A DNA stretch of 64,000 bases from a virus. The first letter of the stretch is position 1; the number at the start of each line of letters is the position of its first letter. The notes under the pieces are model-generated. The model searched no databases and was not told the origin of the DNA. It saw nothing but the letters and a program-made list of their open reading frames with translations. Positions 10,433 to 64,000 of the stretch are shown here, one piece after another. Location: the UHGV virus genome UHGV-0175639. The stretch is one strand, 5' to 3'. The position numbers and the translations under genes are program-made.

Positions 10433-10573
10433 AATTACACCATTAAATAATTTGTTTTCTGATTGGTGTAATTATCGCAAACTTGAAAAGGCATAAAAGC
10501 TGCATTCATAGGCGTTACAGCAGATTTAAGGCGTAAAAATGGGGGCTTTCGCCCCCTGTCGACTGGTGCAGTA

Positions 10574-11140
10574 TTAGAGTGCGTATTGCGTTTTGTGCGG
10601 TTGCTTATTCAAGTCGTGGCGATGCGTAAGCTCCCGCATCATGTCTTCAAGCCGACTTTTCGTATCATCAAGCTGGTCGGCCATTGCTCCCAAAAGCTGG
10701 CGAACGGCCATTGGATCGTCACTGTTTAGTGATGGCATTTTATATCCCGCTTTAGAAGACATAAGATTGATTGCAGACATCAACATCGTTAGAGAAGACT
10801 TAAGTCCGGCAATTTCACGATCTTTGCTGGCAATAATCGTCTCACTATTGTTACCGTCATGGGTTCCTTGAGTCTCGCTCACCATATCCAAAGTCGCCTG
10901 CAACTTATTAGCGCGCTCTTTTTCGGCAAGATAATGAACACCGAAATGGTGTGCCAAAGCTACAACCTGAGTTGGCTCTTCAAAGGTGGAATTAAAATTA
11001 AGTACTGTAAACAGTCTCTCAAATATAGAAACGTCTTCTGTTCCCCGAACAATGCCTAACATTTTGACAAGTTCATTAGCATCCATTTCTTCGAATAGGG
11101 CGTTTTGTTCATCAGCTATTGCTTTGCATTTCTCGCACAT
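10574..11140 (-). CDS. hypothetical protein, 188 aa
   Basis: ORF with conserved leader and upstream AAACAAnTTGTTT motif. Confidence 0.5.
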   Translation of the reverse strand: MCEKCKAIADEQNALFEEMDANELVKMLGIVRGTEDVSIFERLFTVLNFNSTFEEPTQVVALAHHFGVHYLAEKERANKLQATLDMVSETQGTHDGNNSETIIASKDREIAGLKSSLTMLMSAINLMSSKAGYKMPSLNSDDPMAVRQLLGAMADQLDDTKSRLEDMMRELTHRHDLNKQPHKTQYAL

Positions 11141-11437
11141 GTGTTTTCCTTAATGCTTAAACAAGTTGTTTTCTTATTGGCTTTATTGTGATGTGGCATA
11201 AAAGGGGAGCAAGCTAAACGTAAAGGTGCAAACTCTCTATTTCGGTCAACGAAACACAAGGGCCAAATGGCCCTTGTCATTAACACTTTGCTTTACGAAC
11301 TAACGGATAAGCGAAGTAGATCGCCAAACCAATGAGGACGCCATCAGAAATGACAGACATCATCTTTCCCGTAAAATCCACCAACACCGCCATCACCAGA
11401 AGAGCAATGACGATCACAAGCCGGAATCTCTCAAGCA

Positions 11438-11863
11438 TTAGAGATAAGCATCCAGTGACAACTGAAGCGCCTGGGCGATCTTTTTCAGTGCCTGCTCTTC
11501 TTGTTCACCAATGCCGTCCTGATCGGCAATATCAAGGCACAGACACAGAACATCGACCGCCTCTGGAGTACCCGCAATATCAGACAGCTCACGAATAGCC
11601 TGTGCATTAGCAGAACGAGGGGACGCTTCGTAACGAGCACGGATATTGGCGCTCATTTGGGCAATTTCACCAGCAAACGGAGAAAACGCAGGCAGAGCTG
11701 CAATTGTCTTCTCAAGAATGGCAATTTCTTTTGCGTCACATGTGCCGTCGGCATAGGAGATCATGTACGCGCCCCACACGGTGGCCTCAACCGCATCACG
11801 GTTCTCCATTTTTTTGACTTCGATAACAGCTTTACGAGTTTTCTTTTTGAAGAAACCTAACAT
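11438..11863 (-). CDS. TerB-like domain protein
   Basis: 141 aa; acidic helical pattern resembling the TerB fold, from memory; weak. Confidence 0.4.
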   Translation of the reverse strand: MLGFFKKKTRKAVIEVKKMENRDAVEATVWGAYMISYADGTCDAKEIAILEKTIAALPAFSPFAGEIAQMSANIRARYEASPRSANAQAIRELSDIAGTPEAVDVLCLCLDIADQDGIGEQEEQALKKIAQALQLSLDAYL

Positions 11864-11956
11864 GTGTTTTCCTTTTATTATTTGTCAAAACAAGTTGTTT
11901 TCTAATTACATAAATTGCTTACGCAAAGATGGTCAATGCATATGCACTAACAGCCG

Positions 11957-12145
11957 TCAGAAATAACCAAGTACCGAACCGACTGGAAAAACAAAAATCC
12001 CAACTACACGAGCCAAGGTCATGCCAGCCTGAAACTGGAGATCGCCAGAGCAAACAAGTTTTATAATGTTCGATACCCAACCGGCGGCCATGAGGGCAAG
12101 AATTGCCAGCCAAATTTTTCCAAAGTGATTTGAAAACCAGTTCAT
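11957..12145 (-). CDS. small membrane protein, 62 aa
   Basis: Two hydrophobic segments. Confidence 0.35.
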   Translation of the reverse strand: MNWFSNHFGKIWLAILALMAAGWVSNIIKLVCSGDLQFQAGMTLARVVGIFVFPVGSVLGYF

Positions 12146-12154
12146 ACAACCGCC

Positions 12155-12649
12155 TTAGTCACAGCATGATCCTGAGTAACCGGATGAACTTGAGGTATCG
12201 CATCCACCGTCATCCCATCCAGAGTGACAGGACGCTCTACTGGAGTGGTGGTAATTGTCGTCGACGGAGGTGTGGTGATGGATGAACCCGGCATCAAAAG
12301 GCTCTGGCCGGCTGGAACGGCTACCGTCGCCAGTGAAACTATAATGAGAACGTAGGCCATTGGTTTCAGCCTCTTTCTTTGAAAATTTTCCATTCGAACT
12401 GTCCTTGTTGTTTTTCTCCTTCACTAAAGGCCGTGTACTTTTCGCTTCGCGTGAAGAACCAGAGGCAACAATCGCCCCCACGTTCGCAACAACTGACGCT
12501 TGATTATCTAAACGTTCATTCAGCAACCGAACGGTAGTCTCTAGTTCATCAAGACGTGACATAACACGACCGCTAAATAATTCGGCCAAAATTTGACGTA
12601 AAGAACGAGGACGTTTAGTTACAGAAGTGAAATAGGTTTGACGTGCCAT
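12155..12649 (-). CDS. hypothetical protein; frame ambiguous with overlapping signal-peptide ORF 12142-12393
   Basis: N-terminal 85 aa look protein-like (coiled coil), C-terminal part is low complexity; an alternative frame encodes a signal peptide MAYVLIIVSLATVAVPAGQ. Confidence 0.3.
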   Translation of the reverse strand: MARQTYFTSVTKRPRSLRQILAELFSGRVMSRLDELETTVRLLNERLDNQASVVANVGAIVASGSSREAKSTRPLVKEKNNKDSSNGKFSKKEAETNGLRSHYSFTGDGSRSSRPEPFDAGFIHHHTSVDDNYHHSSRASCHSGWDDGGCDTSSSSGYSGSCCD

Positions 12650-12797
12650 GTGGACTCCATCCAGTGTCAGAAAGAGTTGCGGCTGGCGATTGCCAGCCGC
12701 CTTTCTCGTTCCATCCTGGAACTGTGTCTTACCGACACATTGTCATCCTGACGCCGATAAGATACATGATTTAAAATGATAGGTAAACACTTACTTA

Positions 12798-13388
12798 CTA
12801 TTTGTTATAAACAAAACCAATATCTTTCTTGTGAGGCATATCTGCTGCTGAAAAAGCTGCGATCTTCGCGAGTCGATCACATATTTCATTTTCACGATGC
12901 CCGGCGTGACCTTTAACCCACTTCCAGCGAACATTATGTCGACTTGCGGCCTCATCCAGACGCTTCCACAGATCAACATTCTTTACCGGTTTTTTGTCAG
13001 AAGTCATCCATCCATTGCGTTTCCACCATTTCATCCACTGTGTCATGCCGTTTTTCAGATACTGGCTATCAGAGTGCAAAATAACGTTGCATGGATATTT
13101 CAAACGCTCCAGCCCGATAAGTGCCCCCATCATCTCCATGCGGTTATTGGTGGTGCTATGAAAACCATCTGAGAACTCGCGTTCCTCACCACGATACTGG
13201 AGAACGATACCGTAACCGCCCGGGCCACCCGGATTTTTAAGGCAAGAGCCATCACTAAAGATTTTCACGGTTTTAAGCTGGGGATTGAACTCTACGACAG
13301 GCGTTGTGGGATTGGTGCGGGGAGAATTTTTGTTTTTGTCTTTTTTGCGAGTTTTTGCTTGCGATCGGGCTGGTGTCTTCGTCGTCAT
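12798..13388 (-). CDS. rnhA: ribonuclease H
   Basis: [17 protein letters not shown]...[10 protein letters not shown]...HSDSQY...KGHAGH matches RNase HI; start set at MTTKT with a GGAG RBS. Confidence 0.85.
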
Positions 13389-13970
13389 ATAAACTCCTGA
13401 ATCAAGCGCCGCGCCGATTTTTCCTCGCGCGTGCGCACACGCGTGCGTGTTAATAATTATTAAAATAAACAAATTACTTCCCAGAACAGGTTTTTATAAA
13501 CCTGAACTGAACGAACGAAGTGAGTGAAGTTCACCTCGAACGAAGTGAGAGGTTGTCTTTTCAGGTAATACTCTCCCAGGGAGGTGAGTATAAAAATCTC
13601 TCACCAACCTGGTCGTTTCATAACCTGAAAAGTTATGGTCTAAGTCTACTGCCAGCTTAGACTTGGGAAGTTATGGATGACAGCACCCCAGAACCGAGAT
13701 CTTCCCACACTTTATGAAGGGGAGTACTGGATTCAACCTCTCGAAACACCCCAGACTCGACAATCATAAAGTGACCCTTGTCTCTGCTCACTTTGGTTCC
13801 CCCTTCCCCGACACCTAAACGGCACCAGTTCTACGCTGGTAGTGAGCTTTTTTAAACCTGACGCCAGTGACGCTTACCCCCACCCATCAGGTCGAGTCTC
13901 CAGTCTACGACTGGAAACTATCAGATCTTAGCACTTACAATTCACTTTATGAATAGTTTGTACTTATCTA

Positions 13971-14225
13971 TCATTGTGATTGATTATTTTCTCTACCATG
14001 TAGTTGAACATTCAAGGCAAACACCTCATTGATCAACTCACCTAAAAGCTGTTCAACAAGTTCGCGATGCTCGCCAAGATGCAAGCACTTAATTGCCCAT
14101 TCGTACAAGTTGAAAGCCTGCTCACGATCTTTCATCATTTCACGAGCCTGGGCCAGAAAATCGCTCTCTACGAGCGCAACGACATTAGTCGGGTATGACA
14201 TGTTGGTTTCCTTAAAGTGGTTCAT
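13971..14225 (-). CDS. hypothetical protein, 84 aa
   Basis: ORF only. Confidence 0.4.
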   Translation of the reverse strand: MNHFKETNMSYPTNVVALVESDFLAQAREMMKDREQAFNLYEWAIKCLHLGEHRELVEQLLGELINEVFALNVQLHGRENNQSQ

Positions 14226-14308
14226 AAAATCGATTTTAAAGCGTCTGGGAAGGGGTTCTAGTGGATTCTGTAGTGATGTTCAGGTCTGGAGTCTCTGATA
14301 CAAAACAG

Positions 14309-14367
14309 CCTGCTTCCGTATATTAATAATTAATATGTGGTTATTTATATATACAGAAGCAGGCTAA
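14309..14367. terminator. large AT-rich hairpin CCTGCTTCCGTATA...TATACAGAAGCAGG downstream of the Dam-like gene
   Basis: 8-bp GC stem with AT-rich interior, U-rich tract on the transcribed strand; a near-copy is at 60705-60768. Confidence 0.5.
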
Positions 14368-16691: not shown

Positions 16692-16700
16692 CAGAACTCC

Positions 16701-20935: not shown

Positions 20936-22078
20936 TTACAGGTCTGCAAACTGGCTTAGAGAAGCCTTATCCACGGTAGAATCGATCTGACCTACCAGAT
21001 ATGTGCTTTGCTCTGCCTCTTGTGGTGCAATTTGCAGTGTGTCGGTTAACAACCACTTGTTCATCCAGACCAGCGGATCAGTGGTAACTTCTGGAAATAA
21101 AGCCTTCAGGCCAAGACGATTCATAGCCAGATTGGTGCGGTATTTTACATACGTTTTGAGAATATCCGCGTTTAAACCAATCATCGAACCATCTTTGAAG
21201 AGATAGTCTGCCCAGTTCATTTCTTGTTCGGCGACTGATTTCATGGTGTCGTAAATGACGTTTTCTTCATCAGCAGCAATCTCTTTCCACAATAAACCTT
21301 CGCGACCGGTACGCATGAAGCGGATCATGCGTTCAGTTCCTTCGCAATGCAGAGCTTCATCACGGGCAATAAAGCGCATAATTTTGGTGTTACCCTCAAG
21401 CAACTTCCGTTCGCCAAAGGCAAAAGTACATGCAAAACTTACATAGAAACGGATCGCCTCAAGTGCATTAATGGACACCAATGTGCGGAAAAGCTGACGG
21501 TGCAAAGGGTATGGCTCCCAGCCATATTCATTTACGTACAGACGCTCAAATTCCTTCTCACCTAACGACTGGCGCTCGCAGGTCATCCCATAAAGCCTGT
21601 CATATTCAGCAGAGATACTGATCGCTCGGTTGATGATTTCTTCATCCGTAACAATACCGTCAAAAACAATGCTCGGATCGTCCACCATGCCACGAATAAT
21701 GTGGGTGTAGCTGCGGCTATGGATAGTCTCAGAGAAAGACCACGTTTCAACCCACGTTTCCAGTTCAGGAATAGAGATAAGCGGCAGCAGCGTTGCATTT
21801 GGGCTACGTCCCTGAACTGAATCGAGTAACGTTTGATAACGGAGATTGCTCAGAAAAATGTGACGTTCGTGGTCCCGCAGCTTCGTGTTGAAGTCGATAC
21901 GATCGCTCGAAATATCAACTTCTTCCGGCCGCCAGAAGAAAGACAATTGACGTTCAATCAACTTTTCAAAATCACGGTATTTTTGCTGATCGTAACGTGC
22001 CACGTTGACAGATTGTCCGAGGAACATAGGCTCTTTGGTTGCATCATTAGCACCCAAACGGAACGTTGAATATGACAT
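20936..22078 (-). CDS. nrdB: ribonucleotide reductase class Ia beta subunit
   Basis: Near-colinear with E. coli NrdB from memory ([25 protein letters not shown], tyrosyl radical region). Confidence 0.95.
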
Positions 22079-22184
22079 GTGTTTTTCCTTTTTCTTTTTT
22101 GGTGCGTTTAAACAAGTTGTTATCTTATGTGTTTAAACAAGGCTTACAAATCAAAGAGAAGGTGGGGATATCCCCCACCATATG

Positions 22185-30697: not shown

Positions 30698-30798
30698 TAT
30701 GCTACCAGCGGTAATTGATAGTCTGTCAACGGTTCGCCGTATGCTGCCAACTGTTTTTGGTATGCTGCCAGCGGCAAATCAAGTATGCTGTCAGCGGT
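30698..30798. repeat. iteron array upstream of repA (four copies, consensus TATGCTNNCAGCGGT)
   Basis: Copies at 30698, 30740 (degenerate), 30761, 30784. Confidence 0.8.
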
Positions 30799-30817
30799 TG
30801 AATGACAAAGGTGTCCA

Positions 30818-31913
30818 CATGTCCACAAAAAATAAAAAAGGTAAAAATAACAAAGAAGTAGAAGATAATCTCGACAACTTTGAAGAAGGTTCCCTTGAAT
30901 TGTACACAGGGGAACTTGTCCCTAATAGCAACAATACAGTCCAACCAATTGCGTTGATGCGGCTGGGGTTGTTCGTGCCCACGCTCAAGGGGACAAAATA
31001 CAGCAAGCGTAATAAGCCAAATGAGATCGATGCTTCAAAGGAGCTTGTTCAGCTCGAAGTAGCCCGTTCTGAAGGTTATTCCGATATCAAGATAACCGGT
31101 CCTCGTCTCGACATGGATCATGATTTCAAAACGTGGGTGGGCGTTGTGCGTTCGCTGGCAGAATACGGCGAACCTAACGGTCGTGTCGAGTTAAGCATCA
31201 CGAAATTTGCGAAGTTTTGTGGCTATCCATCGTCACAGATCCGCAAAACACTCCGCGACCGGCTTACAAACAGTCTTTTGAAGATCATGCGTACAACTCT
31301 GTCTTTTCAGAGAACGTATGAAGAAAAGAATGTCGACGGCTCTAACAAGATCTCGCTTCTGATGGTGCACCTCATCAATAGCGTGGACTACAACGAGCAG
31401 AAAGATACGGTGGTGTTCTATGCAGAACCGAAGCTGGCCGAACTATATCGCTTTGACCATAAGGTTCTTTTGCAGTTAAAGGTTATCAATAAGCTACCAC
31501 GCAAAGAAACAGCACAGGCTCTGTACACCTTCATCGAAAGTCTTCCAACCAAGCCTGCGCCGGTATCGCTTGCTCGATTACGTGCGCGACTCAATTTGAG
31601 TAGCAGGAATGTCAGCTCGCAGAATCAGACTATACGTAACGGCTTAAAAGCTCTCCAAGATTTGGGCTATCTCGAATACAGCGAGATTAAGCGAGGGCGG
31701 TCGATCTATATCCAGATTCACAGCCGCAATCCAAAACTCAAAGTCGCACCGCCAAAACCTGAAGACATCGAACCCAAAAAACCAGATGAGAAAGCTGGGG
31801 AAATTGATGCCAAACAGAACATTATCAACAAGATAACCGAACTTTCGCAGAATTTGACGCCTGAAAATATCAAGATGATTGAGATCCTTTCCAATAGTCT
31901 CAAACTGCTTTGA
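30818..31913 (+). CDS. repA: RepA-like replication initiator (iteron-binding)
   Basis: 365 aa from MSTKNKKGK; flanked on both sides by iterons; start of the longer tracked ORF rejected because it overlaps the iterons. Confidence 0.7.
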
Positions 31914-32445
31914 TATGCTGTCAGCGGTGAAATGTATGCTATCAGCGGCTATTTTTCTGAAAAGTATGCTGTGAACGGTTAAAGATATGCTACCAGCGGT
32001 ATAGTGAGATAAACGTATGCTGTGAGCGGTAAATCATCTATCACCACTCAATGCTCTGTCATACCTCCCCAGTGGTTACTAACCTCGAAGAGTGCATTCC
32101 ATATAGGTTTGCGCTCACTAACATTCTATTGCTATTGCGCTGATTGCTTGTAGTGAAAGGCATTTATTGCCTGCTGCTCCCTGATAGAACGTATGCTGTC
32201 AGCGGTGTTTTATTGAGGAATTTTTGTTTGGATATGCTATCAGCGGTAATTAATGGTATATGTCAGACCTTCGTATGCTGCCAGCGGTAATTTTGTTCTG
32301 GTTATACCCATACCGGTACACATTATTCATGCAATGTCTTAAGTATGCTGCCAGCGGTAAAAAATCGAGTAAAGTATGCTGTGAGCGGTGATATAGACTC
32401 TCGATATGCTATCAGCGGTAGTTGATTGTGTATGCTGTCAGCGGT
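31914..32445. repeat. iteron array downstream of repA (about 12 copies of the same 15-mer, irregular spacing)
   Basis: Copies at 31914, 31935, 31965, 31986, 32016, 32192, 32233, 32274, 32344, 32374, 32405, 32431. Confidence 0.8.
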
Positions 32446-33586: not shown

Positions 33587-34012
33587 TCAATCTTCTTGGT
33601 TAGGGAAAAACTGTTCAATAACTCTGTCAACGGCTGTGTCTATATGGAGTAGATGCCACACAACCATATCTTTGCTTCCCATGCCTTGTGTGAATATCAC
33701 GTCATACTTACGCCATGCGCAGTGGAACCAATATGCTGAGTCATCAATTGGTAAATCCTCTCCCGCCTCTTTGAAGTATTTCAGCAGCATTGCCTGCTCT
33801 GCCGTTGGCGTTGGACCTATTTCCTGAGCGTACATACGGATGAATCGCTGCCAGTCTGTCTCGTCGGGGGTTGGATCTGGTGGGGTCATTTCTGCGATAG
33901 CGTTTCGTAGCTGATGCGCCCAATCAGGTTCAGGAAAGCCTTTTGCTACTTCATCATCAATAACATCCAGAGCCACGTTTGCGGCATCGTAGAGTTTCTT
34001 AATAACTGTCAT
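33587..34012 (-). CDS. hypothetical protein, 141 aa
   Basis: ORF with upstream AAACAAATTGTTT motif. Confidence 0.5.
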   Translation of the reverse strand: MTVIKKLYDAANVALDVIDDEVAKGFPEPDWAHQLRNAIAEMTPPDPTPDETDWQRFIRMYAQEIGPTPTAEQAMLLKYFKEAGEDLPIDDSAYWFHCAWRKYDVIFTQGMGSKDMVVWHLLHIDTAVDRVIEQFFPNQED

Positions 34013-34103
34013 GTTTTCTTATCCTTTTAAACAAATTGTTTTCTTAATAAGATAATTGCGATAAAAAAGGCGTCCAACTGGACGCCTGAACTTTTAAGGG
34101 GAG

Positions 34104-44310: not shown

Positions 44311-46419
44311 TCACTTTAAAATGATACGAGATAGTTCAGTAACTACAGATGAACCAAGACTATCAACGCTCGTTACCAGGGCATGATTTGAGTAAAATCT
44401 CTCCGGTGCGTCAGTCATGATGCCAATTGCCATCAAATCAATATCAGTCTGCGTTTCAATTTGCTTCGCAACTGAACGCAAATGAGCGTCAAAACCTCTC
44501 CCAACAGCCCACGGCGCGCCATCACTCAGAACAAGCATGATCTTCCTGTCCTCCATGCGACCGGAAAATAACGATGCAAGGCTGGCTATGCTTTCACCAT
44601 CCACGTTATTAAGAAGTGGGAATGTGTAGCCTACGCACCCCATACGTGAGCGAACTTCGCGAGAATTTACCTTTTCATTCCAATTTTTGATGATAGGTAG
44701 CATTAAAGATTCAAAGCGAGAGAACTCATACTTGACAGCCTTAAGTTCTCCTGCCGCCATATGACTACCAAATGTAGTGAAGCCGGTGATAATGTTGGGA
44801 ACATTTATTCGATCAAGGGCATCGGCGATGGTATATGCACTTGCAAGAGCCAGTTTAATCGTTATACCACTCATTGAACCTGATAAATCAATCACTTGTT
44901 GAACACAGGCGTTAACGGCTTTAGATTCTTCTTTTTTACGAAACACGCGAGCATCATTCATTGCTAATCTGTAGATACTAGAACCATGAATGCGCCCCCG
45001 ACGCTGGCCCGGTATAAACTGAACTCTGTTTCTGCTTGCTATTGCTCGCTCCAGGTCTTTTGCCAGCGTCGACGAAACACCTGACGAAAGATGCTTTTCA
45101 ATATATTTGTCGAAGAGCTGGTTGCCTTCAGGAACGATGCGATAGCGGCTGATTGGATATCCTCCCAAATCAATATCGGAGAATGTTTTAATAAGCCGTT
45201 TGATATGGGCTTCTGCCTGATCAATCGAGCCGATGAAGTCGTATGAGCGATTGTATGGCCTGTATTCGCTTTTCGAGCTTTCTGTTAACTCGCTTTTAAT
45301 CGTTTCGGATAGCGCATCTTCTGTCATGCCTCCGACTTCATCTTCCATGCTATCCAACTCCTCTAAAGCCTCTTCCAGACTCATTTTTGACGGAGTTGGG
45401 ATATCTGAAGAGCCGTCTTCTGTCGTTTTTCTTTTTTCGTGGTCAGCGGTTAATGATTCTGACGCCGCGTTATCAGAAGCATCAGAATCTGATACCTCTT
45501 TATCATTTTCTGTATCATCGAATATTGTTTCTGATGATTCAGAATTATCTGAATCATCACTGTCGTTATTATCATGTTTGTACTTACTATGTGATTCTGA
45601 TTTGATAGATTTGTAATTATCTAACACTGAGGGAGTCTCATGATCTTCGTTGTCTTCATTGTTTTCTCCAGAGGCATCCGTCTGGTCAGCGTCTGAAGGA
45701 TCGGAAGTTTTTCCCGGAGCTGACTCCTTACCTTTGCTTTCACTTTCAGTGTCTTTGAGGATCTTAGCTATGGTCGCAGCCACCTTTACACAATCCTCGG
45801 TGCAAGACATGTTACGCACGGCCACATCGATACCATGTTCTTTTAATAATGAAATTGGTTTCTCAATGACAGGCCAATGTTCATCCATGAAATCTACGAA
45901 CGGTGCTTGGCCATCCCAGGCTCTTACAACCGGACAGAGAAAGAAGTTTAGAAAAAGCGCGCGCTGATCTTTGCCACAATAAGCAATAGCCTCTGAAGCC
46001 TTTGGTTTAAAGACTTTTTCGATTATAAGGCGCTGAGTTGCCATCAGATTACGTCTTGTTCCGTTAAAGACCTGACCCATTTTTCGCTCGATGAACACGT
46101 CTTCTAAGGCATTCCATAGCGACCAGGAAGGAACGCGTCCTTTTTCTCTCATTTTGTTGGACACACGAATATCGGTAAACAAAATGTGAGCAACCTCATG
46201 ATCGAGAAATCCGCGCACAGCATTCATCAATGCCGGTGTTGCGTTATCCGGGATTGATGGGATGTTTACGAGAATTGGCTCTCCATCATCGTTATAGCGT
46301 ACATAAGCGTCGTCCCCTCGTTCTGCAACAGGGATGTTTTTACCTGAAAGGAGAGCGACTACTCGTTTTACACTGTCACGGAAGTCCTGAACCTCTTTGA
46401 TGGAACGTTTTTTAGACAT
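44311..46419 (-). CDS. CobT-like protein with C-terminal VWA domain
   Basis: MIDAS-like DLSGSM motif; long acidic D/E/S linker. Confidence 0.7.
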   Translation of the reverse strand: MSKKRSIKEVQDFRDSVKRVVALLSGKNIPVAERGDDAYVRYNDDGEPILVNIPSIPDNATPALMNAVRGFLDHEVAHILFTDIRVSNKMREKGRVPSWSLWNALEDVFIERKMGQVFNGTRRNLMATQRLIIEKVFKPKASEAIAYCGKDQRALFLNFFLCPVVRAWDGQAPFVDFMDEHWPVIEKPISLLKEHGIDVAVRNMSCTEDCVKVAATIAKILKDTESESKGKESAPGKTSDPSDADQTDASGENNEDNEDHETPSVLDNYKSIKSESHSKYKHDNNDSDDSDNSESSETIFDDTENDKEVSDSDASDNAASESLTADHEKRKTTEDGSSDIPTPSKMSLEEALEELDSMEDEVGGMTEDALSETIKSELTESSKSEYRPYNRSYDFIGSIDQAEAHIKRLIKTFSDIDLGGYPISRYRIVPEGNQLFDKYIEKHLSSGVSSTLAKDLERAIASRNRVQFIPGQRRGRIHGSSIYRLAMNDARVFRKKEESKAVNACVQQVIDLSGSMSGITIKLALASAYTIADALDRINVPNIITGFTTFGSHMAAGELKAVKYEFSRFESLMLPIIKNWNEKVNSREVRSRMGCVGYTFPLLNNVDGESIASLASLFSGRMEDRKIMLVLSDGAPWAVGRGFDAHLRSVAKQIETQTDIDLMAIGIMTDAPERFYSNHALVTSVDSLGSSVVTELSRIILK

Positions 46420-46517
46420 GGCTAATCCTTTGTTATGAAAACAAATTATTTACTAGTGTGTTTAATGTAGCACTGCGCGAACAGGGAACTAAGCCATTCG
46501 CGCAGGGAGAAGAGGGG

Positions 46518-46730: not shown

Positions 46731-46980
46731 TCAATCAATCCATTCTAACTTATACTATGGTAAGGAATACTACTAAAATTTATATCAATACTGAATACAT
46801 TCATATCATATGCAAGTTAATTTTCTTACCTGTTTTGGGCTAATTTTTCTCCGTGCAATGGCCTTTAACCGGTCTTTTAAGTGCCTATCGAAAAAATGAT
46901 AATAGCTTTACAACCCTAACCTTTGATGTAATATCGGTAAGCACTTACCAGAGAGAATTGAACGCGCAAAGGTTGTAACA

Positions 46981-47367
46981 ATGTCTGACAACAAGATTGA
47001 ATTTATAGAAAGTCGCTATGCTGCTTTTATCGCAGGGCTGATTGAATCCTCACCTATGAGTCAGGCCCAAATAGCCAGACTTATTGGTTATAAAAATGCC
47101 AACAACCTTTCTTTAATTAAAAGTGGCAAAATTCCTTTGCCTATCGATAAGGTTCGTCCGTTGGCGCTGGCGCTGGGTATTGAGCCAAGTCGTCTTATGA
47201 TGATGGTGCTGGAAGAACGCCAACCTGAACTCGCAGCATTTTTATACAAAGAAGGCACCGCTCCTCTTAACGAGGACGAAAAACAGGTTCTTGCTGCATA
47301 TAACGAGCGATTCGGTAAAGAGAAAGGCGCATCACAAAAGGTTGTTGAGGCCATAAAGTCTCTATGA
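46981..47367 (+). CDS. HTH (Cro/C1-type) transcriptional regulator
   Basis: SQAQIARLIGYKNANNLSLIKSG helix-turn-helix; convergent with the recombinase. Confidence 0.6.
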   Translation: MSDNKIEFIESRYAAFIAGLIESSPMSQAQIARLIGYKNANNLSLIKSGKIPLPIDKVRPLALALGIEPSRLMMMVLEERQPELAAFLYKEGTAPLNEDEKQVLAAYNERFGKEKGASQKVVEAIKSL

Positions 47368-48465
47368 AAAATTTACACGAATAAGCTCTGTTGATAGACG
47401 ATCTCCCTTGAATTTGTGGTCAATTTCGTCTAAATCCGGTTGCTCTACGATTGATGCGATGTACGTCGAGAAACTTTCTAAGGCGTCTCGCATCTCGTCC
47501 ATATAATCGTGCCGGTCGTAGACTCGATCTATCCCCTCAAGACTGTGGTTCATGATTTTGCGTGATACCTCCTGGCTTATGCCTAATGCTGGGAAGTAAC
47601 TACGCGCAGTACGGCGCAAGTCTCGGGGTGTAAATGGCTCAAGCTCCATCAGTTCTGGTCGTTCCAGGATACGACGTAATGCCTGGGCTATTGCCACTTT
47701 AGACATAGGAAGGTCTTTCCCGATTTTTTTATTCGAAGGCACGAGCCACTGGCTGCCTTTACCGTATTCGAACAACTCTTCAATACATGTGCGCATTAAT
47801 GTGCTTAAAGGCAGCGAATGCTCACGGGCAGATTTGTTCCTCTTGCCTTGATTCCAAACCCCACGCTTAAGATTGAACTCACTTTTTTTAGCCCGCAGTA
47901 CTTCGTCAGGTCGTCTTGCGGATACAAGACACAGCCTGGCCGCCCATTTTGTACCAGCGCACACATTGAAGTAGTCCCATATATTCCAGAACACCCATAC
48001 CTCTGCGTCGGTCAGCTTCCGCTCGCGAGGTGTGGGCTTTGCGCCACCGGCAACTTTGTTTAGTGACATATCGTTTAACGGTGACACGTCTATCATCCCC
48101 TGGAAGGCGCACCAGCTAAGGAACTGCTTCATCAGAGAGAAAACGCGGCGGCCCATAACAATTTTGCCATCCAGTATTAGTGGGTTGACCAGTTGGTTCA
48201 CCATGAACCTATTAATGTCACTTACTTTTACATCGGCAATGTGCGGCAAAACATGTATCAAAATACAATGAACAGCGATCTCTGGCCGACGTCTTGTTAT
48301 CAGCAGAGATAAGCGAGTGAATAACATGAATGCGTCCGAGAATCTCATGTCATTGCTGACCTGCGAGATCATAACGGCCTGCATTTGAGATGCTCTTTCG
48401 AGATACTCAATCGCCTCTTTTGAGGTGTTCTCCGCAGCGCGTGCTCTGTCAAAGCTATTTTTCAT
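47362..48465 (-). CDS. tyrosine site-specific recombinase
   Basis: Conserved Arg and LRRT box and C-terminal VYDRHDY tyrosine region. Confidence 0.8.
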   Translation of the reverse strand: MKNSFDRARAAENTSKEAIEYLERASQMQAVMISQVSNDMRFSDAFMLFTRLSLLITRRRPEIAVHCILIHVLPHIADVKVSDINRFMVNQLVNPLILDGKIVMGRRVFSLMKQFLSWCAFQGMIDVSPLNDMSLNKVAGGAKPTPRERKLTDAEVWVFWNIWDYFNVCAGTKWAARLCLVSARRPDEVLRAKKSEFNLKRGVWNQGKRNKSAREHSLPLSTLMRTCIEELFEYGKGSQWLVPSNKKIGKDLPMSKVAIAQALRRILERPELMELEPFTPRDLRRTARSYFPALGISQEVSRKIMNHSLEGIDRVYDRHDYMDEMRDALESFSTYIASIVEQPDLDEIDHKFKGDRLSTELIRVNFS

Positions 48466-48563
48466 ATGACAATCACCGAGTTACGCCGATTCACTGTATA
48501 AGTAAACAGTATATTAGGCATAGATTCTTATAGGATCAAGAGTAAAAGTAACTCATTTTCAGT

Positions 48564-50549: not shown

Positions 50550-50636
50550 CTGGCGGAGAGTAATGGAATCGAACCATCATCGTTTGCACAATGGAACGGT
50601 TTTCAAGACCGCTTGAGCACCATGCTCCCTACTCTC
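50550..50636 (-). tRNA. tRNA-Ser (anticodon UGA), long variable arm, CCA encoded
   Basis: Manual fold: acceptor GGAGAGU/ACUCUCC, anticodon loop CUUGAAA, T-loop GGTTCGATTCC. Confidence 0.65.
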
Positions 50637-50827
50637 CAGCTATTGTGATGGTCGGTACTGAACTCCGACACAGGGTTGTAGCAAGCCCCGCAAAGCGCGC
50701 ACTACTGTAGTTGCGGCACATCAGCCTGTGCATTCATCACAACGGTAAGAGCACTGGTCTGACTCTATCGATTTACGGCCTTGTGGGTCAGTATCGCCGA
50801 TTCGCCCAATGCTCTTACCTGTTGTGT

Positions 50828-50903
50828 TGGTGCCGGTTAACGGACTTGAACCGCTGGCCATTCGCTTACAAAGCGACTGCTCTACCAACTGAGCTAAACC
50901 GGC
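50828..50903 (-). tRNA. tRNA-Thr (anticodon UGU), CCA encoded
   Basis: Manual fold: acceptor GCCGGUU/AACCGGC, D-arm AGCTCAGTTGGTAGAGC, anticodon loop UUUGUAA. Confidence 0.6.
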
Positions 50904-50907
50904 AATT

Positions 50908-50994
50908 TGGTGGGGAGTGATGGAGTCGAACCACCCGAGTCGCCATGACAGTAGATTTACAGTCTACACCGCTACCTCTACGGACTAACTCCCC
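50908..50994 (-). tRNA. tRNA-Tyr (anticodon GUA), long variable arm, CCA encoded
   Basis: Manual fold: acceptor GGGGAGU/ACUCCCC, anticodon stem-loop GUAGA-CUGUAAA-UCUAC. Confidence 0.6.
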
Positions 50995-50999
50995 TAAAT

Positions 51000-51074
51000 T
51001 GGCGATGGTGGGTGGATTCGAACCACCGACCAGTTGGTTAACAGCCAACTGCTCTACCGCTGAGCTACACCATC
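51000..51074 (-). tRNA. tRNA-Asn (anticodon GUU), CCA encoded
   Basis: Manual fold: acceptor GAUGGUG/CACCAUC, anticodon stem-loop GUUGG-CUGUUAA-CCAAC, T-loop GGTTCGAATCC. Confidence 0.65.
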
Positions 51075-52143: not shown

Positions 52144-52292
52144 TTTTTCACCTTTGTTTCATGAACTACCCGATACACACGCTTTCCGATGCACAGTGTT
52201 TTGGTTTTAAGTTCCTGCTTAATTAAATCACGACAGATGCCGAAGCCGATAAGGAAGCCACCCATAAAAGCTAATGAGATGTATGGAATCAT
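52140..52292 (-). CDS. small membrane protein, 50 aa
   Basis: MIPYISLAFMGGFLIGFGIC...; translationally coupled on both sides. Confidence 0.35.
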   Translation of the reverse strand: MIPYISLAFMGGFLIGFGICRDLIKQELKTKTLCIGKRVYRVVHETKVKK

Positions 52293-52504
52293 TTTAACAC
52301 TCCTGATTCTACTAATTGCTGTAGCAATACTTTCCCTTTATCAGTTAACTGGTAGTTGGCCGAACACCACGTTTCAGAAACGTTTGCAACCAACCCTAAA
52401 CGCTCTAACTTAGCTCGCGTTTTAGGCTTCCAGTACTCAGGGAACTCCGGCCACTTACTGATTTCATGAAGCGTTTCCTTCTCCCGTTTACTTAATACGA
52501 TCAT
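52289..52504 (-). CDS. hypothetical protein, 71 aa
   Basis: ORF coupled to neighbours. Confidence 0.45.
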   Translation of the reverse strand: MIVLSKREKETLHEISKWPEFPEYWKPKTRAKLERLGLVANVSETWCSANYQLTDKGKVLLQQLVESGVLK

Positions 52505-58387: not shown

Positions 58388-58468
58388 GTGTTTTTCTTTT
58401 GTGGTTTGGCAAAAGAAAAGTTGTTTCACCAATGAATCAAGCGTGGAGGTGTTCTCCACGCTTATTTT

Positions 58469-59809
58469 TTAGGTAACGTCTAAGATTCGCTCAATGAAGC
58501 GCATTTGTTCGAGGTTTTGTTTAACGCGAATGCTGATCCCTCCCTGCTGGTTACGTGAACCAGCAAAGTAGAGACGAGCCTCTCCTTTCGCTTCTTCTTC
58601 TTCGGTTTTGTTGATCGTTATTACCAGGTCAGCAATACGTACTTTTTCGAAGTTGTCGGCAGCCTGCATCATTGTGGCATCTTCTGTCGCGCCACCTTCA
58701 CGGTTTGTCTGCGATGCCGTAATCCCAGCAACGTTATGCTTGTCATAAAGAGCACGTAAATCGGTGTAGATACTACGAATGTTGGCGCGATCATCACGAA
58801 GGTCATAACTGGCACGCATCAAATCTGCGTAGTCGACAACAACCATGTCAGGCACCATGCCGTTGGCTTTCATGCTGTTAAGCATACGGTCCAGATCTGC
58901 CGGTGACATACTTCCTGACGGACGCTCAACCACCCACAAACTACCAATCCCCTTCGTGGCTCCCAACTCTGCCAACTTACGATGAACCTCATCGCGCCGT
59001 TCCACCAGCTTGGACATTTCTGTCTCCGACAATCTTGCATCAAAACGGTCGGATAAAATGGTGGTGTGAACCTCCAGCGAGAGATACAGAACATTGTAGC
59101 CAGCAAGCGTTGCGTTTATGGAAAACTCACCCATTGCGGTCGATTTGCCGGATTTAGCGAACCCCATGAAGAGCACCATTTCACGCTTCGCCCAGCCTTT
59201 TTGGTACAGCAACCTATCGAGCAGAGGGAGTCCAGTTGTAATGCTGTTTGGCACATACTCCTCTGAAGCCTCATATTCACGCGCTTTCAATCGCTCACTT
59301 GCGGAGGTGTAGTAGTCATAGATTCCGGTCGCTTCGTTCGAGCCTATCTGCTGAACCTTGGCCATGATTGCCATCGCCCCCTGAAAGTCGCCCTTCTCTT
59401 TCAGTTCAGCAGCTTTAATCAGAGCATCATCAAACGCTACACTTTTTGCGAATGTGGATACCTGGTCAACCATGTACGTGGTATCAGACAATTTTTCTGC
59501 AAGGATGCGCTTAAACGCAGCAACAACATCCGGGAAGAGTTCCTCACGGATGGTCTTATCGCGTTTCGCGCGCTTAAGCATATCCAGAATCGCAGATGAA
59601 GAAGGCGCGCTCTTGTACATACGGTAATAGCCCGAAACCATATTAACCAATATGGCATTGGCCGCATTGGCAAATTGGCTAGGCACAACCAGATCTCCCG
59701 CACGAGTAAGAAACTCGTGATCACGACAAAAATATGCCGTCAGTCTGTTCTGGAAATCTTCATCAAACTCTTCGGACAGCCCGCGTCCTGTATGGCAAAG
59801 TTCGGTCAT
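58469..59809 (-). CDS. DnaB-like replicative helicase
   Basis: RecA-fold Walker A GFAKSGKST and Walker B VVVDYADL. Confidence 0.8.
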   Translation of the reverse strand: MTELCHTGRGLSEEFDEDFQNRLTAYFCRDHEFLTRAGDLVVPSQFANAANAILVNMVSGYYRMYKSAPSSSAILDMLKRAKRDKTIREELFPDVVAAFKRILAEKLSDTTYMVDQVSTFAKSVAFDDALIKAAELKEKGDFQGAMAIMAKVQQIGSNEATGIYDYYTSASERLKAREYEASEEYVPNSITTGLPLLDRLLYQKGWAKREMVLFMGFAKSGKSTAMGEFSINATLAGYNVLYLSLEVHTTILSDRFDARLSETEMSKLVERRDEVHRKLAELGATKGIGSLWVVERPSGSMSPADLDRMLNSMKANGMVPDMVVVDYADLMRASYDLRDDRANIRSIYTDLRALYDKHNVAGITASQTNREGGATEDATMMQAADNFEKVRIADLVITINKTEEEEAKGEARLYFAGSRNQQGGISIRVKQNLEQMRFIERILDVT

Positions 59810-59852
59810 GTGCTTTCCTTTGTTTTTTAAACAAATTGTTTTCTAGTATTAG

Positions 59853-60602
59853 TTAATTAGATAGGGGATCAATAAACCGCCGTGCTTCTTCCAGTTCTTC
59901 TGGAAAGTGGGCGGAAATAAGGCGCTCTGGAACGATTTCCATTAGCCAGATAGCAGAGAAAATTGCGCGTATGCGCTTGCTGCGGGGGATGATGCGCAAA
60001 CGCTCCAGAATCCACTCAAAATAGCTTTCCTGAATCGGGTTGAACTGCATGTCTCCCATATGCTTAAAGCTAACCAGAGAGTCATCCAGACGGGTTGTTG
60101 CGCGTCTGGATAATTTCTCTTCGAATATCTCAACCAGTTCTGGCTGCCATAAATGCTGTGGGCGCGGCAACTTGTCCCACAGACGCCGTGCAGCTGCGGA
60201 AAGAACCGTGGAGATAAAGTAGTCGTATGAACAGCAATAGCGATCAGCAAACTGGCGTGCTTTCCATAGCGACGTTTTATTGGCAGTCGACAACTCCTGA
60301 TAAGGCAGGCGTTTTAACCCGGTGGTGAACGGAGCTGTTTCAAAGTGTTCGCGACCGTGCGTCAGCATGATATTTGAGTACTGACGTTTGTACGCCTCCG
60401 TAAACAGACAGGTGGCCATGAGAGGATGCATATCGCGGTAATCAAACCACTTCGTCTCGAAGAGTTCAGCCTCGTCTTTGCAGCGCGACAAACCAATGTT
60501 TTCAGCGACCCACTTGTCCATAACAGCGGTATTCCACTCTGTCATGAAGTCGTACTGGTCGTTGTCAATGGTATCAAAAAAGATTTGGCTCATGTGGCTC
60601 AC
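59853..60602 (-). CDS. hypothetical protein, 249 aa
   Basis: ORF upstream of the helicase; helicase-loader role is only a positional guess. Confidence 0.45.
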   Translation of the reverse strand: MSHMSQIFFDTIDNDQYDFMTEWNTAVMDKWVAENIGLSRCKDEAELFETKWFDYRDMHPLMATCLFTEAYKRQYSNIMLTHGREHFETAPFTTGLKRLPYQELSTANKTSLWKARQFADRYCCSYDYFISTVLSAAARRLWDKLPRPQHLWQPELVEIFEEKLSRRATTRLDDSLVSFKHMGDMQFNPIQESYFEWILERLRIIPRSKRIRAIFSAIWLMEIVPERLISAHFPEELEEARRFIDPLSN

Positions 60603-60704
60603 CAGATAGGTAGTTACTTACTTATTGCAATGAGCGGATGATAGCGACTGGTGGCAGTTTTTGGAAGTGGAAACGGAAGGGAATGTGTCTGGGAAGTTGG
60701 CATA

Positions 60705-60768
60705 GAAAAAGACCTGCTTCCGTATAAATAATAATAAGTAACTTAGTATTTATATACAGAAGCAGGTT
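60705..60768. terminator. large AT-rich hairpin CCTGCTTCCGTATA...TATACAGAAGCAGG (second copy)
   Basis: Same stem as 14309-14367; U-rich tract on the transcribed strand. Confidence 0.5.
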
Positions 60769-60790
60769 CCAAATTCAACCAGCAGGATGC

Positions 60791-61987
60791 TTAAACATCT
60801 TTTAGAAAGCCTGGAAACCAATGTTTCATGATATACCTAAAATGTGCTCTAGTTGGTTCAAAAACCTGTCTAGATACCAGCGCTCCATCAGGATGATTCT
60901 GAACAGACTGTTCTTTTTCCATATCGTAAAAATTATGAGTTATCTCTGGGGGGAAGAAAATATTTCTGTCCAGTGGCACTGTCGCAAAAGGATTGTAGTA
61001 AATATGAAGGCCGTCAAAGTGCGTCTCTTCATGAGCAGTGGAATGACAAACTACAATATCCGCACCAGTGACTTCGTTATTTAAAAAATGCCGATATGTA
61101 GTGATGAAATGATCAGGTCCTATCCTTTGTGTGTGCTTTCCCTCGTTTTTCATCCCTTCATTGGCGATGAAATCATTCACATCAATGGCTCGATATCGTG
61201 TTGACCTTACATATCTACCGATACCGCTTTGAACCACGGCTTTTCCAAAAGTGCCGGTGGTGGAGAAAATAACCGCACTTATTTCTTTATATGAGTCGTT
61301 AGTAAATATACCTAATGGAATTTCAACGTCTTCATTCTTTTTGATTGAGGTAACTTTAGTTTGGCTGCCAGTCACCAAATTTCTGGTGGTAGGTTCCTCA
61401 ATGCCAAACAACACTCGATTGATGATTGTGTTATTTTGAGACAATGATAAATCGGAGTCAAAGGGTGCAAGCGCCAGAACAAACGGCTTATTAACTACAT
61501 GAGACATCGTAGAGTACGGGAATTTTTTGCCATTAACTCCTGTAAAAAGATCATGTTTGTCTTTGATTTTTCCGATTAATTTTAGCGTTGATTGATGTTT
61601 GAATTTTGATTCGCTAAAAAGAACACCTGCAGGTGGATTATGTGGCCGATCTGATATCACAGCTTCGACGTTAAACTGGTAGCCTGACGGTGTAGTAACA
61701 CAGAAATCGGGACTGTCTTTTGTGTAGTCGACAGAATAATCGAGACGAATAAACATTTCGTTCAGATACAATTCCCATAAGGCGGAATTGAAGGTTGTCT
61801 GAAACTCTTTAACGAATTTAGTCTGCTCACCGCTACGCTCCAGTAACCCACGCCCCCACGACTGTATCACTTCTCTTACTGGAGCATATGTATTATCTTG
61901 ATAAATCTGTTTAAAAGATTCGTGCAGCTTGTTTTTTGCTATTTTGGTTGAGAACAAATCCATTATTAGCCTCACTAACCAGTTCAA
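60791..61987 (-). CDS. hypothetical protein, 398 aa (island gene 2)
   Basis: No recognised domain; AT-rich by eye; start may be the internal MDLFSTK. Confidence 0.5.
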   Translation of the reverse strand: MNWLVRLIMDLFSTKIAKNKLHESFKQIYQDNTYAPVREVIQSWGRGLLERSGEQTKFVKEFQTTFNSALWELYLNEMFIRLDYSVDYTKDSPDFCVTTPSGYQFNVEAVISDRPHNPPAGVLFSESKFKHQSTLKLIGKIKDKHDLFTGVNGKKFPYSTMSHVVNKPFVLALAPFDSDLSLSQNNTIINRVLFGIEEPTTRNLVTGSQTKVTSIKKNEDVEIPLGIFTNDSYKEISAVIFSTTGTFGKAVVQSGIGRYVRSTRYRAIDVNDFIANEGMKNEGKHTQRIGPDHFITTYRHFLNNEVTGADIVVCHSTAHEETHFDGLHIYYNPFATVPLDRNIFFPPEITHNFYDMEKEQSVQNHPDGALVSRQVFEPTRAHFRYIMKHWFPGFLKDV

Positions 61988-62029
61988 TAAGAAAAGCGCC
62001 CAACATAATCATTTGAGGAAAGTCTGGAG

Positions 62030-62788
62030 CTACTTCAGCTTTTCTTTGACAAGAAGATAACCATCATCAGGTGTACTCATTTTGTAAACCTCGATGCTCG
62101 TGTCTAGCTGTGTCCGGGCATATTCTTCTACTTCAGGAGAAACGTTATGTCCAAGAATGATCTCTCTAATATATTTCTTATCAAATGCCTGAGCGCCTAT
62201 TTTTTTAGTAATAACCCTTTGTTCTTCCTCATATTTCCAGCATTCGTGCTTGTAGAAAAAGAGCTTATCAAAAAGTACCTTAAACTCATCTGTAACTTCA
62301 TCGAACACGGGAACAGAAGGTATATATTTCACATTATCAAAGCTGTGATACCCCTCAATAGAGGTAACAAAATCATCATCAAAGCCTATGCAGAAACCTT
62401 TATGCGACACTGAGTAATGTGACCACATCAAGATGTTATCTTCGTTTGGTGACAAGCACACCACACCAAAAGCCCCTAATGATTCTTTCCGCAAATCCAC
62501 AGCCAACGATTTTGCAGCTTCAGGAGCTACAGCATCCCAGTCTTCAAAGGAAAAATCCTTACATCCATTGTCTTCAAAGTGTTTCCGGTGCTCCACTTCT
62601 GTACCTCCCATCGTTATCGAAACTTTGAACTCTGATGGGTCGTTGAATGAAGAAGGTGCGCTAGCAGAGATAGTGCCGTCCTCTACAAACCGTTTGAGGT
62701 TACGTAACACTTTTTGCGAATCTTCACTTCCAATATATTTGTAGAGCATTAGGGAACCTATAGAAAGAGGTGCCAAGCAGCACCTCAA
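62030..62788 (-). CDS. DUF2971-like protein, 252 aa (island gene 1)
   Basis: LYKY...SSFNDPSEF...MWSHYS...GFCIGFD pattern as remembered for DUF2971; begins 6 nt after the ParG-like stop. Confidence 0.5.
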   Translation of the reverse strand: MRCCLAPLSIGSLMLYKYIGSEDSQKVLRNLKRFVEDGTISASAPSSFNDPSEFKVSITMGGTEVEHRKHFEDNGCKDFSFEDWDAVAPEAAKSLAVDLRKESLGAFGVVCLSPNEDNILMWSHYSVSHKGFCIGFDDDFVTSIEGYHSFDNVKYIPSVPVFDEVTDEFKVLFDKLFFYKHECWKYEEEQRVITKKIGAQAFDKKYIREIILGHNVSPEVEEYARTQLDTSIEVYKMSTPDDGYLLVKEKLK

Positions 62789-62793
62789 TAAAA

Positions 62794-63153
62794 TTAACCT
62801 TTCTTCATCAACTCGCGTTTGATTTCATCGGTACGCATCGTGACATCGGCAGCTGTGATCGCCTCGTTAAGTTTCACGATGTCCTCGATTTCCTGCGGTG
62901 TCTTCTCCGCAAGATGGAAAATAGCAGCACGAATCACGTCAGAACGAGTGAACTTCTCGAAGCGAGGGATGAACTTCATCATCTCCAGCAGTTCGAAGTA
63001 TTCGTCCTCCAGTGACATTGTGCGGCTTTTAATTTTCTCTTTGCCACGAGTCGGGCGTCCCTGTGGTCTGACTGGTTGGCGCAAAGGAGTTGTGTTCTTA
63101 GCCGGTGCATCAGGCTCTTTGCGCTTTGCTAGGTCACCCATTTTCATGGACAT
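62794..63153 (-). CDS. small partition protein (ParG/ParB-like centromere binder, putative)
   Basis: 119 aa, basic N-terminus, directly downstream of parA with overlapping stop and start. Confidence 0.5.
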   Translation of the reverse strand: MSMKMGDLAKRKEPDAPAKNTTPLRQPVRPQGRPTRGKEKIKSRTMSLEDEYFELLEMMKFIPRFEKFTRSDVIRAAIFHLAEKTPQEIEDIVKLNEAITAADVTMRTDEIKRELMKKG

Positions 63154-63821
63154 TATTCTTCTTCCTCCAGACTCAACAGATAATCTACAAATTCTTCAAA
63201 CTCGGCTTCCGCCTTTTTGTCGCGCTCGCTACCGGTCATTTCAAAGATAGAACGACCAGACTCTTCCGCATCATCATAGACGTTGCGGTTATATAGATTG
63301 ACTGGCGCAGACTCGATGCCAAACGTCTCAACAATCTCTTTAGCCGCCAGAATGCGAGACACTTGTGATGGCAAAGCCGGGCACTGGTTCATGACCGCGC
63401 GGACCTTCACTTTATCGTTTACATTGCGAACATTGTCGATAATAGGATCGATGTCACGTAAAGATTTCAAATCACGACGCTTAGGACGCAGCGGGATAAT
63501 GATAACGTCAGCCATCAGCATCGCTTGTCGCTGAATTTCGGAGTCGAAGCCACCAGCATCTACCACTACAAACTCAGCTCTACCCTGAAGCGATTTTAGG
63601 TGCTTAATGATGTCATCCTGAACGTATGCAAAAGGAATCAGCTCAAGGTCTTCGTTCTGTCGACGGTCTTCACACCAGCTCGTTGTCGTGCGCTGAATAT
63701 CTATATCGGTAATATAAACCTTCTTCTTCTTTTTGACTTTCAGGCAAACGGCAATTTGCTGGGCAACGGTGGATTTGCCAGGCCCGCCCTTTGTGCCGCC
63801 AACCACAAAGATCTTGGTCAT
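63153..63821 (-). CDS. parA: ParA-type partition ATPase
   Basis: Deviant Walker A GGTKGGPGKST; 222 aa. Confidence 0.85.
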   Translation of the reverse strand: MTKIFVVGGTKGGPGKSTVAQQIAVCLKVKKKKKVYITDIDIQRTTTSWCEDRRQNEDLELIPFAYVQDDIIKHLKSLQGRAEFVVVDAGGFDSEIQRQAMLMADVIIIPLRPKRRDLKSLRDIDPIIDNVRNVNDKVKVRAVMNQCPALPSQVSRILAAKEIVETFGIESAPVNLYNRNVYDDAEESGRSIFEMTGSERDKKAEAEFEEFVDYLLSLEEEE

Positions 63822-64000
63822 TGGAGAGTTCCCTTTGCGTATATAATTATCGTCTGAAACAACTTGTTTTCTTATATGTGATATAGCCTAAATGCCTACG
63901 GCTGCGGTGTAAAGGTTTAATGATAGGTACATAGGGGGGGCTTAATAACAAAAAACCCGCCGTAGCGGGTTTATTGATTCATAGATCGTTTAGTCAGAAT

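Follow-up and report, generated by a model that had tools for sequence, protein, structure and literature searches.

Why does one short palindrome recur just ahead of so many genes in the virus genome UHGV-0175639? A stretch of 64,000 nucleotides (nt) of this genome, hereafter called the window, contains repeated copies of a 13-base palindrome, motif A, which on the minus (coding) strand reads AGA-AAACAAnTTGTTT. The original prediction, made from the letters of the window, took these copies for the sites of one dimeric regulator. The answer that we favor, with moderate confidence and on the features of the sequence, is that motif A is the DNA operator of a dimeric repressor which is encoded by the phage-plasmid itself and conserved in its family. 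Most likely, one candidate regulator acts through motif A to hold replication, partition, and early genes off together.

The window shares 95-97% identity with the Escherichia phages CMS-2020a, Cyrano, and PhiR41_1, and ~80-84% identity with Salmonella phage SSU5 and its Klebsiella relatives. Judging from these identities, it is part of an SSU5/pHCM2-type phage-plasmid, of which it holds the early, replication, and maintenance half, with nearly all genes on the minus strand. Phage-plasmids of this type are very common in clinical Enterobacteriaceae, and the gene adjoining parA matches 797 plasmid records. The family takes in pHCM2 of Salmonella Typhi and the pMT1 backbone of Yersinia pestis, and resistance genes are carried by its members. 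A literature search on the regulation of SSU5/pHCM2-type elements returned no account of how the choice between lysis and plasmid maintenance is controlled. While plasmid prophages with a regulon of dispersed operators are a well-known kind of system, motif A, its architecture, and its conservation across the family appear to be undescribed. One conserved site at ~18 promoters would provide a handle on this control and delimits a probable regulon. Moreover, the motif can be used as a probe to fish out its regulator, and could serve in the de-repression or curing of these elements.

Motif A in the window and its relatives

The exact palindrome AAACAANTTGTTT is found five times in the window (at 11159, 11888, 34029, 59829, and 63857), against 0.01 copies expected from dinucleotide shuffles, none of which reached five. 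Copies with one mismatch are found at 7537, 10445, 22110, and 46439. The longer oriented consensus on the minus strand is wTAAGA-AAACAAnTTGTTT-aa. A scan with a 22-nt weight matrix returned nine strong sites, eight of them oriented with the gene that they precede and one (7537) in the opposite orientation. All nine are intergenic (p ~1e-8), in a window of which 8,525 of the 64,000 bases (13%) lie between genes. Motif discovery in intergenic DNA, which had been proposed as a check, singled out motif A: an unbiased k-mer count gave GAAAACAA and TAAGAAAA as the 8-mers most enriched in intergenic DNA, and a count of exact palindrome families found AACAA-N-TTGTT to be enriched there and no other.

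The repeated palindrome before many operons, as first described, is therefore real, and the coordinates given for its copies were correct within 1-2 nt. The genes named behind them (nrdB, a DnaB-type helicase gene, parA, and a cobT-like gene) were also found there, together with DUF4942, TciA/TerB-like, and DUF7238 genes and two hypothetical genes; all lie on the minus strand. The gap between palindrome and start codon is 12-35 nt at eight sites and 74 nt at 7537, which agrees with the earlier figure of 15-45 nt if distances are counted from the motif center. One listed copy, at 58416-58428 (58414-58426), was left uncounted: with two mismatches, it retains a single half-site (AAACAAC), the flanking features are missing, and its score does not reach the threshold. 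Across the sites, conservation is equal in the two half-sites while the center base is free to vary, the pattern that a DNA-bound dimer would be expected to produce. Several sites come immediately after the terminator that closes the operon before them.

The five exact copies, all on the minus strand, stand before genes of different kinds. The copy at 11159-11171 lies 18 nt before a gene for a 188-amino-acid protein (10574-11140), with a terminator-like hairpin ~65 nt upstream, and the one at 11888-11900, in an intergenic gap of 55 nt, precedes the TciA/TerB-like gene (11438-11863) by 24 nt. The copy at 34029-34041 immediately follows the terminator GGCGTCCAGTTGGACGCCTTTTTT and precedes the DUF7238 gene (33587-34012) by 16 nt. 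The copy at 59829-59841 is found in a 43-nt gap, with 19 nt between it and the DnaB-type helicase gene (58469-59809), and that at 63857-63869 is found 35 nt before parA (63153-63821). The parA promoter has the best -35 element of the set (TTTACA, 17 nt, TAGGCT).

Three gene-oriented copies on the minus strand have one mismatch. AGA-AAACAAATTATTT (10445-10457) lies 12 nt before the DUF4942 gene (8747-10432). TAACAACTTGTTT (22110-22122) is found right behind the nrdA terminator hairpin and 31 nt before nrdB (20936-22078), and this variant is kept in SSU5. AAATAATTTGTTT (46439-46451) lies 19 nt before the cobT-like gene (44311-46419). Upstream of this last copy, an inverted repeat CTGCGCGAA-N15-TTCGCGCAG (46473-46505) spans the cobT-like promoter at its -35 region. 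It has a counterpart in the corresponding position, CTGTACGAACAG...CTGTTCGTACAG, in SSU5, pHCM2, and pMT1, and may be a further operator. The ninth site, TAGA-AAACAATTTATTT (7537-7549, plus strand), belongs to the promoter of the gene at 6962-7462. It lies directly behind a hairpin and ends 19 nt before the -10-like hexamer GAAAAT of that promoter.

Motif A is not confined to the window. At no more than one mismatch, 18 sites were found in Cyrano and 19 in SSU5, again intergenic and ahead of first genes. At the promoters of parA, the helicase, the cobT-like gene, nrdB, and the DUF4942 gene, the palindrome is kept at the matching position, whereas flanks and center base drift. Further analysis revealed the motif and its architecture in a divergent Klebsiella plasmid, many metagenomic SSU5-like contigs, a Nissabacter-type element, and a chromosomal copy. 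Multiple copies were seen only in SSU5-like contigs; other viral contigs contained single matches at chance level. In a Moellerella relative with the same gene order motif A is absent, and only ATAAGAAAACAA is left upstream of parA. All motif-bearing relatives share one palindrome, and the sole negative genome lacks the motif entirely.

The structural genes of Cyrano and SSU5 contain no motif A, and the only copies in their vicinity are two in tandem, located in the terminase operon leader. This late leader (Cyrano 40-134, SSU5 ~40-130) was found to contain, in order, a -10-like CTAATT, motif A twice at a distance of 25 bp, and an AGCGC-N6-GCGCT hairpin, followed by terS. Through the copies in the terminase leader, motif A would also guard the late operon. 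A role in recognition by TerS or as a packaging site is implausible for dispersed sites.

Promoter register and a proposed operator model

To place motif A relative to promoters, 22 non-redundant sites of the window, Cyrano, and SSU5 were aligned. All 22 have a T 14 nt upstream of the palindrome. Hexamers matching TATAAT at four or more of six positions form a single peak, at just this offset (10/22 sites, against 0-3 elsewhere). In the best copies, the T at -14 closes an extended -10 element, TGnGATAAT, and the TGn is present in many copies. The best-preserved promoter of this kind in the window is that of the 10445 site, with a predicted -10 GATAAT at 10471-10476 (minus strand) and TGc upstream of it (TGcGATAAT ending at 10471). 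The other hexamers of the window at the same place (motif start +26 to +31) are weaker: CACAAT, AGCAAT, CGCAAT, CTACAT, CTAATT, and GGCTAT.

The palindrome itself matches neither of the sigma-70 hexamers TTGACA and TATAAT. Moreover, its gap to the ATG, down to 12 nt, is too short for a promoter, so the palindrome should lie at or after the transcription start. With a -10-like element ending 14 nt upstream, it is predicted to span about +8 to +20. From this anatomy, motif A is in all probability not the promoter itself and is placed downstream of it. The 12-nt gap and the upstream -10-like element in fixed register rule out motif A as a -35 element, a -10 element, or an upstream activator site. 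It had been argued that the palindrome is too close to the ATG for a normal sigma-70 promoter; this did not hold, as the -10-like element 14 nt upstream would give an ordinary leader of ~35-55 nt.

A second class of copies is inverted and ends exactly 19 nt before the -10 element in 5/5 cases. Examples are 7537 in the window, 85818, 93114, and 97190 in Cyrano, and 85602 and 88319 in SSU5. These inverted copies overlap the -35 region and are 51 bp, center to center, from the downstream copy.

The state of the downstream genes in a lysogen can be read from a published transcriptome of the Cyrano lysogen LF82 (PMC9928086, supplementary table). The first genes behind motif A are at background (5.7-13, with the helicase at 21; median 9.8). 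The parA operon is the exception, with values of 50-89 despite its perfect copy of motif A.

Taken together, the symmetry, the free center base, the -10 register, the copies over -35, and the silence in the lysogen fit the operator of a dimeric repressor just downstream of the start. We infer the following mechanism. A dimer, or a dimer of dimers, would bind the 13-bp palindrome, centered ~14 bp downstream of the predicted start, at some 18 weak sigma-70 promoters of the extended -10 type, of which the window holds nine. The bound repressor would block either the binding of RNA polymerase or its escape from the promoter, and at some promoters the inverted second copy over -35, 51 bp away, would make repression cooperative. 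In the plasmid state, the early small genes, the nucleotide-metabolism and replication genes, the parA operon, and the terminase leader would thus be held down together. Alternatively, the same genes would be shut off after an early burst on infection. The proposal of one dimeric regulator with a regulon, like C1 in P1, is consistent with the anatomy, the family conservation, and the lysogen transcriptome. The regulon is thus a probable one, while two further points of the original proposal, the distance argument above and the choice of the helix-turn-helix (HTH) protein discussed below as regulator, were not supported.

Several observations count against this model. Some of the -10 hexamers in the window lack the key A at -11, so the promoter assignment leans on the consensus of the family. 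Many of the promoter modules are visibly related, and the fixed spacing could therefore be partly inherited rather than selected. The conserved promoter-proximal AGA has no symmetric partner and is left unexplained by a simple dimer. The protein ranked first among the candidate binders below, which resembles ParG, is also encoded by the Moellerella plasmid, where dispersed motif A is missing. Finally, each transcript would carry the motif in its 5' leader, and the members of the family encode a repressor that resembles FljA and binds RNA, which leaves room for a post-transcriptional role.

This last point leads to the most substantial of the other explanations, to which we give a low probability. 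Here motif A would act as RNA: the FljA-like protein would bind the leader (...AGAAAACAAnUUGUUU...) with which every regulated mRNA would begin, and block translation, destabilize the mRNA, or both. The palindrome would then be a shared 5'-leader target through which an Sm-fold protein silences ~18 lytic and maintenance transcripts post-transcriptionally, and the FljA of flagella would be related, as a domesticated form, to a regulator of phage lysogeny, which we likewise consider doubtful. If the FljA-like protein is indeed the partner, this would bear on the origin of flagellar phase-variation control. The gene concerned (homologue of CYRAN_114 and SSU5_121; Cyrano 100780-101301, SSU5 96897-97415) is located ~8.5 kb left of the window. 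Its product has two Sm-like domains and matches Pfam Flag1_repress (PF03614, E = 1e-80), with weak Hfq/LSM matches. These proteins form a distinct subfamily (53-98% identity inside it, ~40% to chromosomal FljA), and their genes lie on contigs of ~100-115 kb with no flagellin gene nearby. The gene was found in 12/12 SSU5-like phage records, which makes it a core gene, and it is expressed in lysogens. It accompanies the motif wherever this was seen, including the Nissabacter-type and chromosomal elements, and is absent from the motif-free Moellerella plasmid; however, ~45 other genes are likewise co-absent there. FljA reportedly binds the fliC 5' leader and represses its translation, and the fliC leaders of Salmonella and Citrobacter contain the 8-nt CAAGTTGT, identical to the core of motif A. 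Conversely, the spacing of motif A is fixed to the -10 element and not to the Shine-Dalgarno sequence or the ATG, and the inverted copies at -35 would lie outside the transcript of that promoter. A perfect dyad with equally conserved halves is needless for recognition of single-stranded RNA, variant sites show no compensatory changes, and the hairpin is marginal (-0.3 to -3 kcal/mol, z-scores above 0). The motif A hairpin is no more stable than shuffled sequence, and a scan of the window with Rfam 15 at the gathering score gave tRNA hits only and none for motif A; both a stable hairpin in the RNA and membership of a known RNA family were therefore ruled out.

Two further readings are much less probable still. 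A host regulator of Enterobacteriaceae/Yersiniaceae could bind motif A and couple the early genes to host physiology. The motif is invariant in elements from E. coli, Salmonella, Klebsiella, Enterobacter-type, and Nissabacter hosts and missing from the single Morganellaceae relative examined, as this would have it; yet, among the viral contigs compared, its multi-copy occurrence was confined to SSU5-like ones. We know of no E. coli or Salmonella regulator with the motif A consensus. The sites of KdgR, CusR, PhoP, GadE, and RcsB resemble it partially and have a different spacing. It is just as improbable that motif A is part of the promoter, as an initial-transcribed or pause-type element or as the site of a positive phage factor whose absence would leave the lysogen silent. 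The poor -10 hexamers in the window and the weak -35 regions would suit such a role, the AGA flank by the predicted start is conserved as much as the palindrome, and the terminase leader, in which a hairpin comes after two copies, recalls the control regions of late genes. However, activators are not known to act from a site centered at about +14, the palindromic symmetry and the inverted copies at -38 fit operators better, and the parA promoter is active in lysogens despite its perfect copy.

Candidate binding proteins and comparable systems

For the repressor that the operator model calls for, the tentative ranking places a ParG-like protein first and the lysogen-expressed homologue of CYRAN_117, encoded outside the window, second. 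The ParG-like candidate regulator has 119 amino acids and is encoded right behind parA (62794-63153, minus strand) in an operon headed by motif A. Across the family, the stretch KSRTMSLEDE...FTRSDVIRAAI is invariant, and the N-terminal tail MGDLAK...RPQGRPTRGK is conserved. From this pattern the protein looks like a ParG-type ribbon-helix-helix protein whose putative DNA-contact segments are invariant. It is expressed in the lysogen. A profile search of Pfam and the PDB gave no match, and the model of the monomer (predicted local distance difference test, pLDDT, 63) was too poor for a fold search. In the Cyrano annotation the gene after parA is called a 'RelE/ParE toxin'; its product looks rather like a ParG-type partition or regulator protein. 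The CYRAN_117 homologue (92 amino acids) is ribbon-helix-helix-like and lysogen-expressed, and its putative strand differs in Moellerella.

The regulator proposed originally was the XRE-type HTH protein encoded at 46981-47367 (plus strand). Its own promoter carries another palindrome, GGTAAGCACTTACC, in the E. coli, Salmonella, Klebsiella, and Yersinia elements; in the window, this copy (46934-46951) belongs to the second dispersed palindrome, motif B, and lies just downstream of the TAATAT -10 of the gene. The Moellerella relative has kept both the HTH protein and this second palindrome family, and it has no AAACAAnTTGTTT sites. As its own promoter bears motif B and Moellerella keeps both without motif A, the HTH protein more likely partners motif B and is disfavored as regulator of motif A. 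SSU5 itself lacks a homologue, yet almost every SSU5-like plasmid has one, and SSU5 has thus probably arisen by deletion.

Other proteins were considered as binders and set aside. The winged-helix protein at 52289-52504 (CYRAN_37 homologue) is absent from 5/12 SSU5-like phages, and HicB is absent from the window. CYRAN_119/120, the ParB-family genes, are located beyond the window; they show background expression in the lysogen and are kept at 46-69% identity in the motif-free Moellerella plasmid. A centromere-like array near parA was not found: one palindrome lies upstream, with no conserved array in Cyrano or SSU5.

Several known systems resemble the one proposed here. P1 is likewise a plasmid prophage in which one operator, that of C1, is repeated at many promoters, overlapping or adjoining them, and silences scattered lytic operons. 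P1 C1 operators are asymmetric 17-mers, ATTGCTCTAATAAATTT, bound by monomers, whereas motif A is a symmetric 13-mer of unrelated sequence. No C1-like product was found in the annotation of Cyrano or SSU5, in which no search aimed at C1 was made. In RK2/RP4, the sites of KorB (OB) and KorA are also 12-13-bp palindromes (6-1-6 for KorB) dispersed at promoters, those for partition and replication included, and the regulon has one small controller with a link to partition; motif A is likewise found at the parA promoter. The KorB site differs in sequence and its binder is a ParB-family HTH protein, while the ParB-family genes here persist in the motif-free Moellerella plasmid. TP228 ParG and pSM19035 omega are small proteins encoded behind a short Walker-type ParA, with a disordered N-terminus and a C-terminal ribbon-helix-helix-like motif, as predicted for the candidate of this element. 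Omega controls several promoters in addition to partition, and here the ParG-like operon is itself headed by motif A. Both bind arrays of short repeats, whereas single palindromes are found here, and the fold of the candidate is suggested by its sequence pattern.

Other parallels concern the position of the sites. In lac O1, the operator lies just downstream of the start, as predicted for motif A. The stoperators of gp71 in mycobacteriophage L5 are ~30 copies of a 13-bp site that are transcription-oriented, lie in short intergenic gaps, and silence the genome. However, stoperators are asymmetric and act on elongation away from promoters, whereas motif A is symmetric and in register with the -10 element. 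With FljA and the fliC leader, the system shares a Flag1_repress protein and the core CAAGUUGU, common to motif A in its predicted leaders and to the Salmonella fliC leader. It differs in the low protein identity, in the lack of a flagellin gene, and in that it would have many targets rather than a single one; by its symmetry and its register with the promoter, motif A points to DNA.

Motif B and other features of the window

The second dispersed palindrome, motif B, has the sequence TAGGTAAGnnCTTACCTA, in the form TAGGTAAG-NN-CTTACCTA. At no more than five mismatches, 41 matches were found, against 11 in simulated sequence. Its 18-mers start at 8729, 12780, 14993, 24547, 29229, 35172, 46934, 48966, and 60607. 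Most lie between the -35 and -10 elements of good sigma-70-like promoters, and the one at the HTH repressor gene lies just after the -10. SSU5 and the Moellerella plasmid have both conserved motif B, which probably serves as operator for the XRE repressor (46981-47367). A second dispersed palindrome tied to an XRE repressor suggests a two-layer circuit.

A core resembling motif B is also enclosed, together with a TATAAATA box, in the long hairpins CTGCTTC...TATAAATA...GAAGCAG at 14310-14362 and 60714-60765. A third copy of the long hairpin is found at the genome ends of Cyrano, just upstream of the terminase promoter. TATAAATA occurs five times in intergenic DNA and not at all in coding DNA.

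The window also contains features of a plasmid and of a mobile element. The repA gene (30699-31913) is flanked by twelve iterons ACCGCTnnnAGCATA (30698-32445), which mark the plasmid replication origin region. Open reading frames resembling IS3-family transposases are found among the small early genes (3998-5151), on the basis of translation alone (MSGKRYPEEFKTEAV...). A cluster of four tRNA genes is located at 50554-51074; one of them reaches the gathering threshold for tRNA-Sec (47.3 against 47 bits), and this borderline match is more likely a long-arm tRNA such as tRNA-Ser.

LexA boxes (CTGT-N8-ACAG) were found at two places in the window and at no others. The box at 1798-1813 precedes the gene for a UmuD-like S24 peptidase (1390-1779), and that at 48494-48509 precedes an integrase-like gene (47362-48465) which adjoins the repressor gene. 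The presence of these two boxes suggests that the element receives an SOS input.

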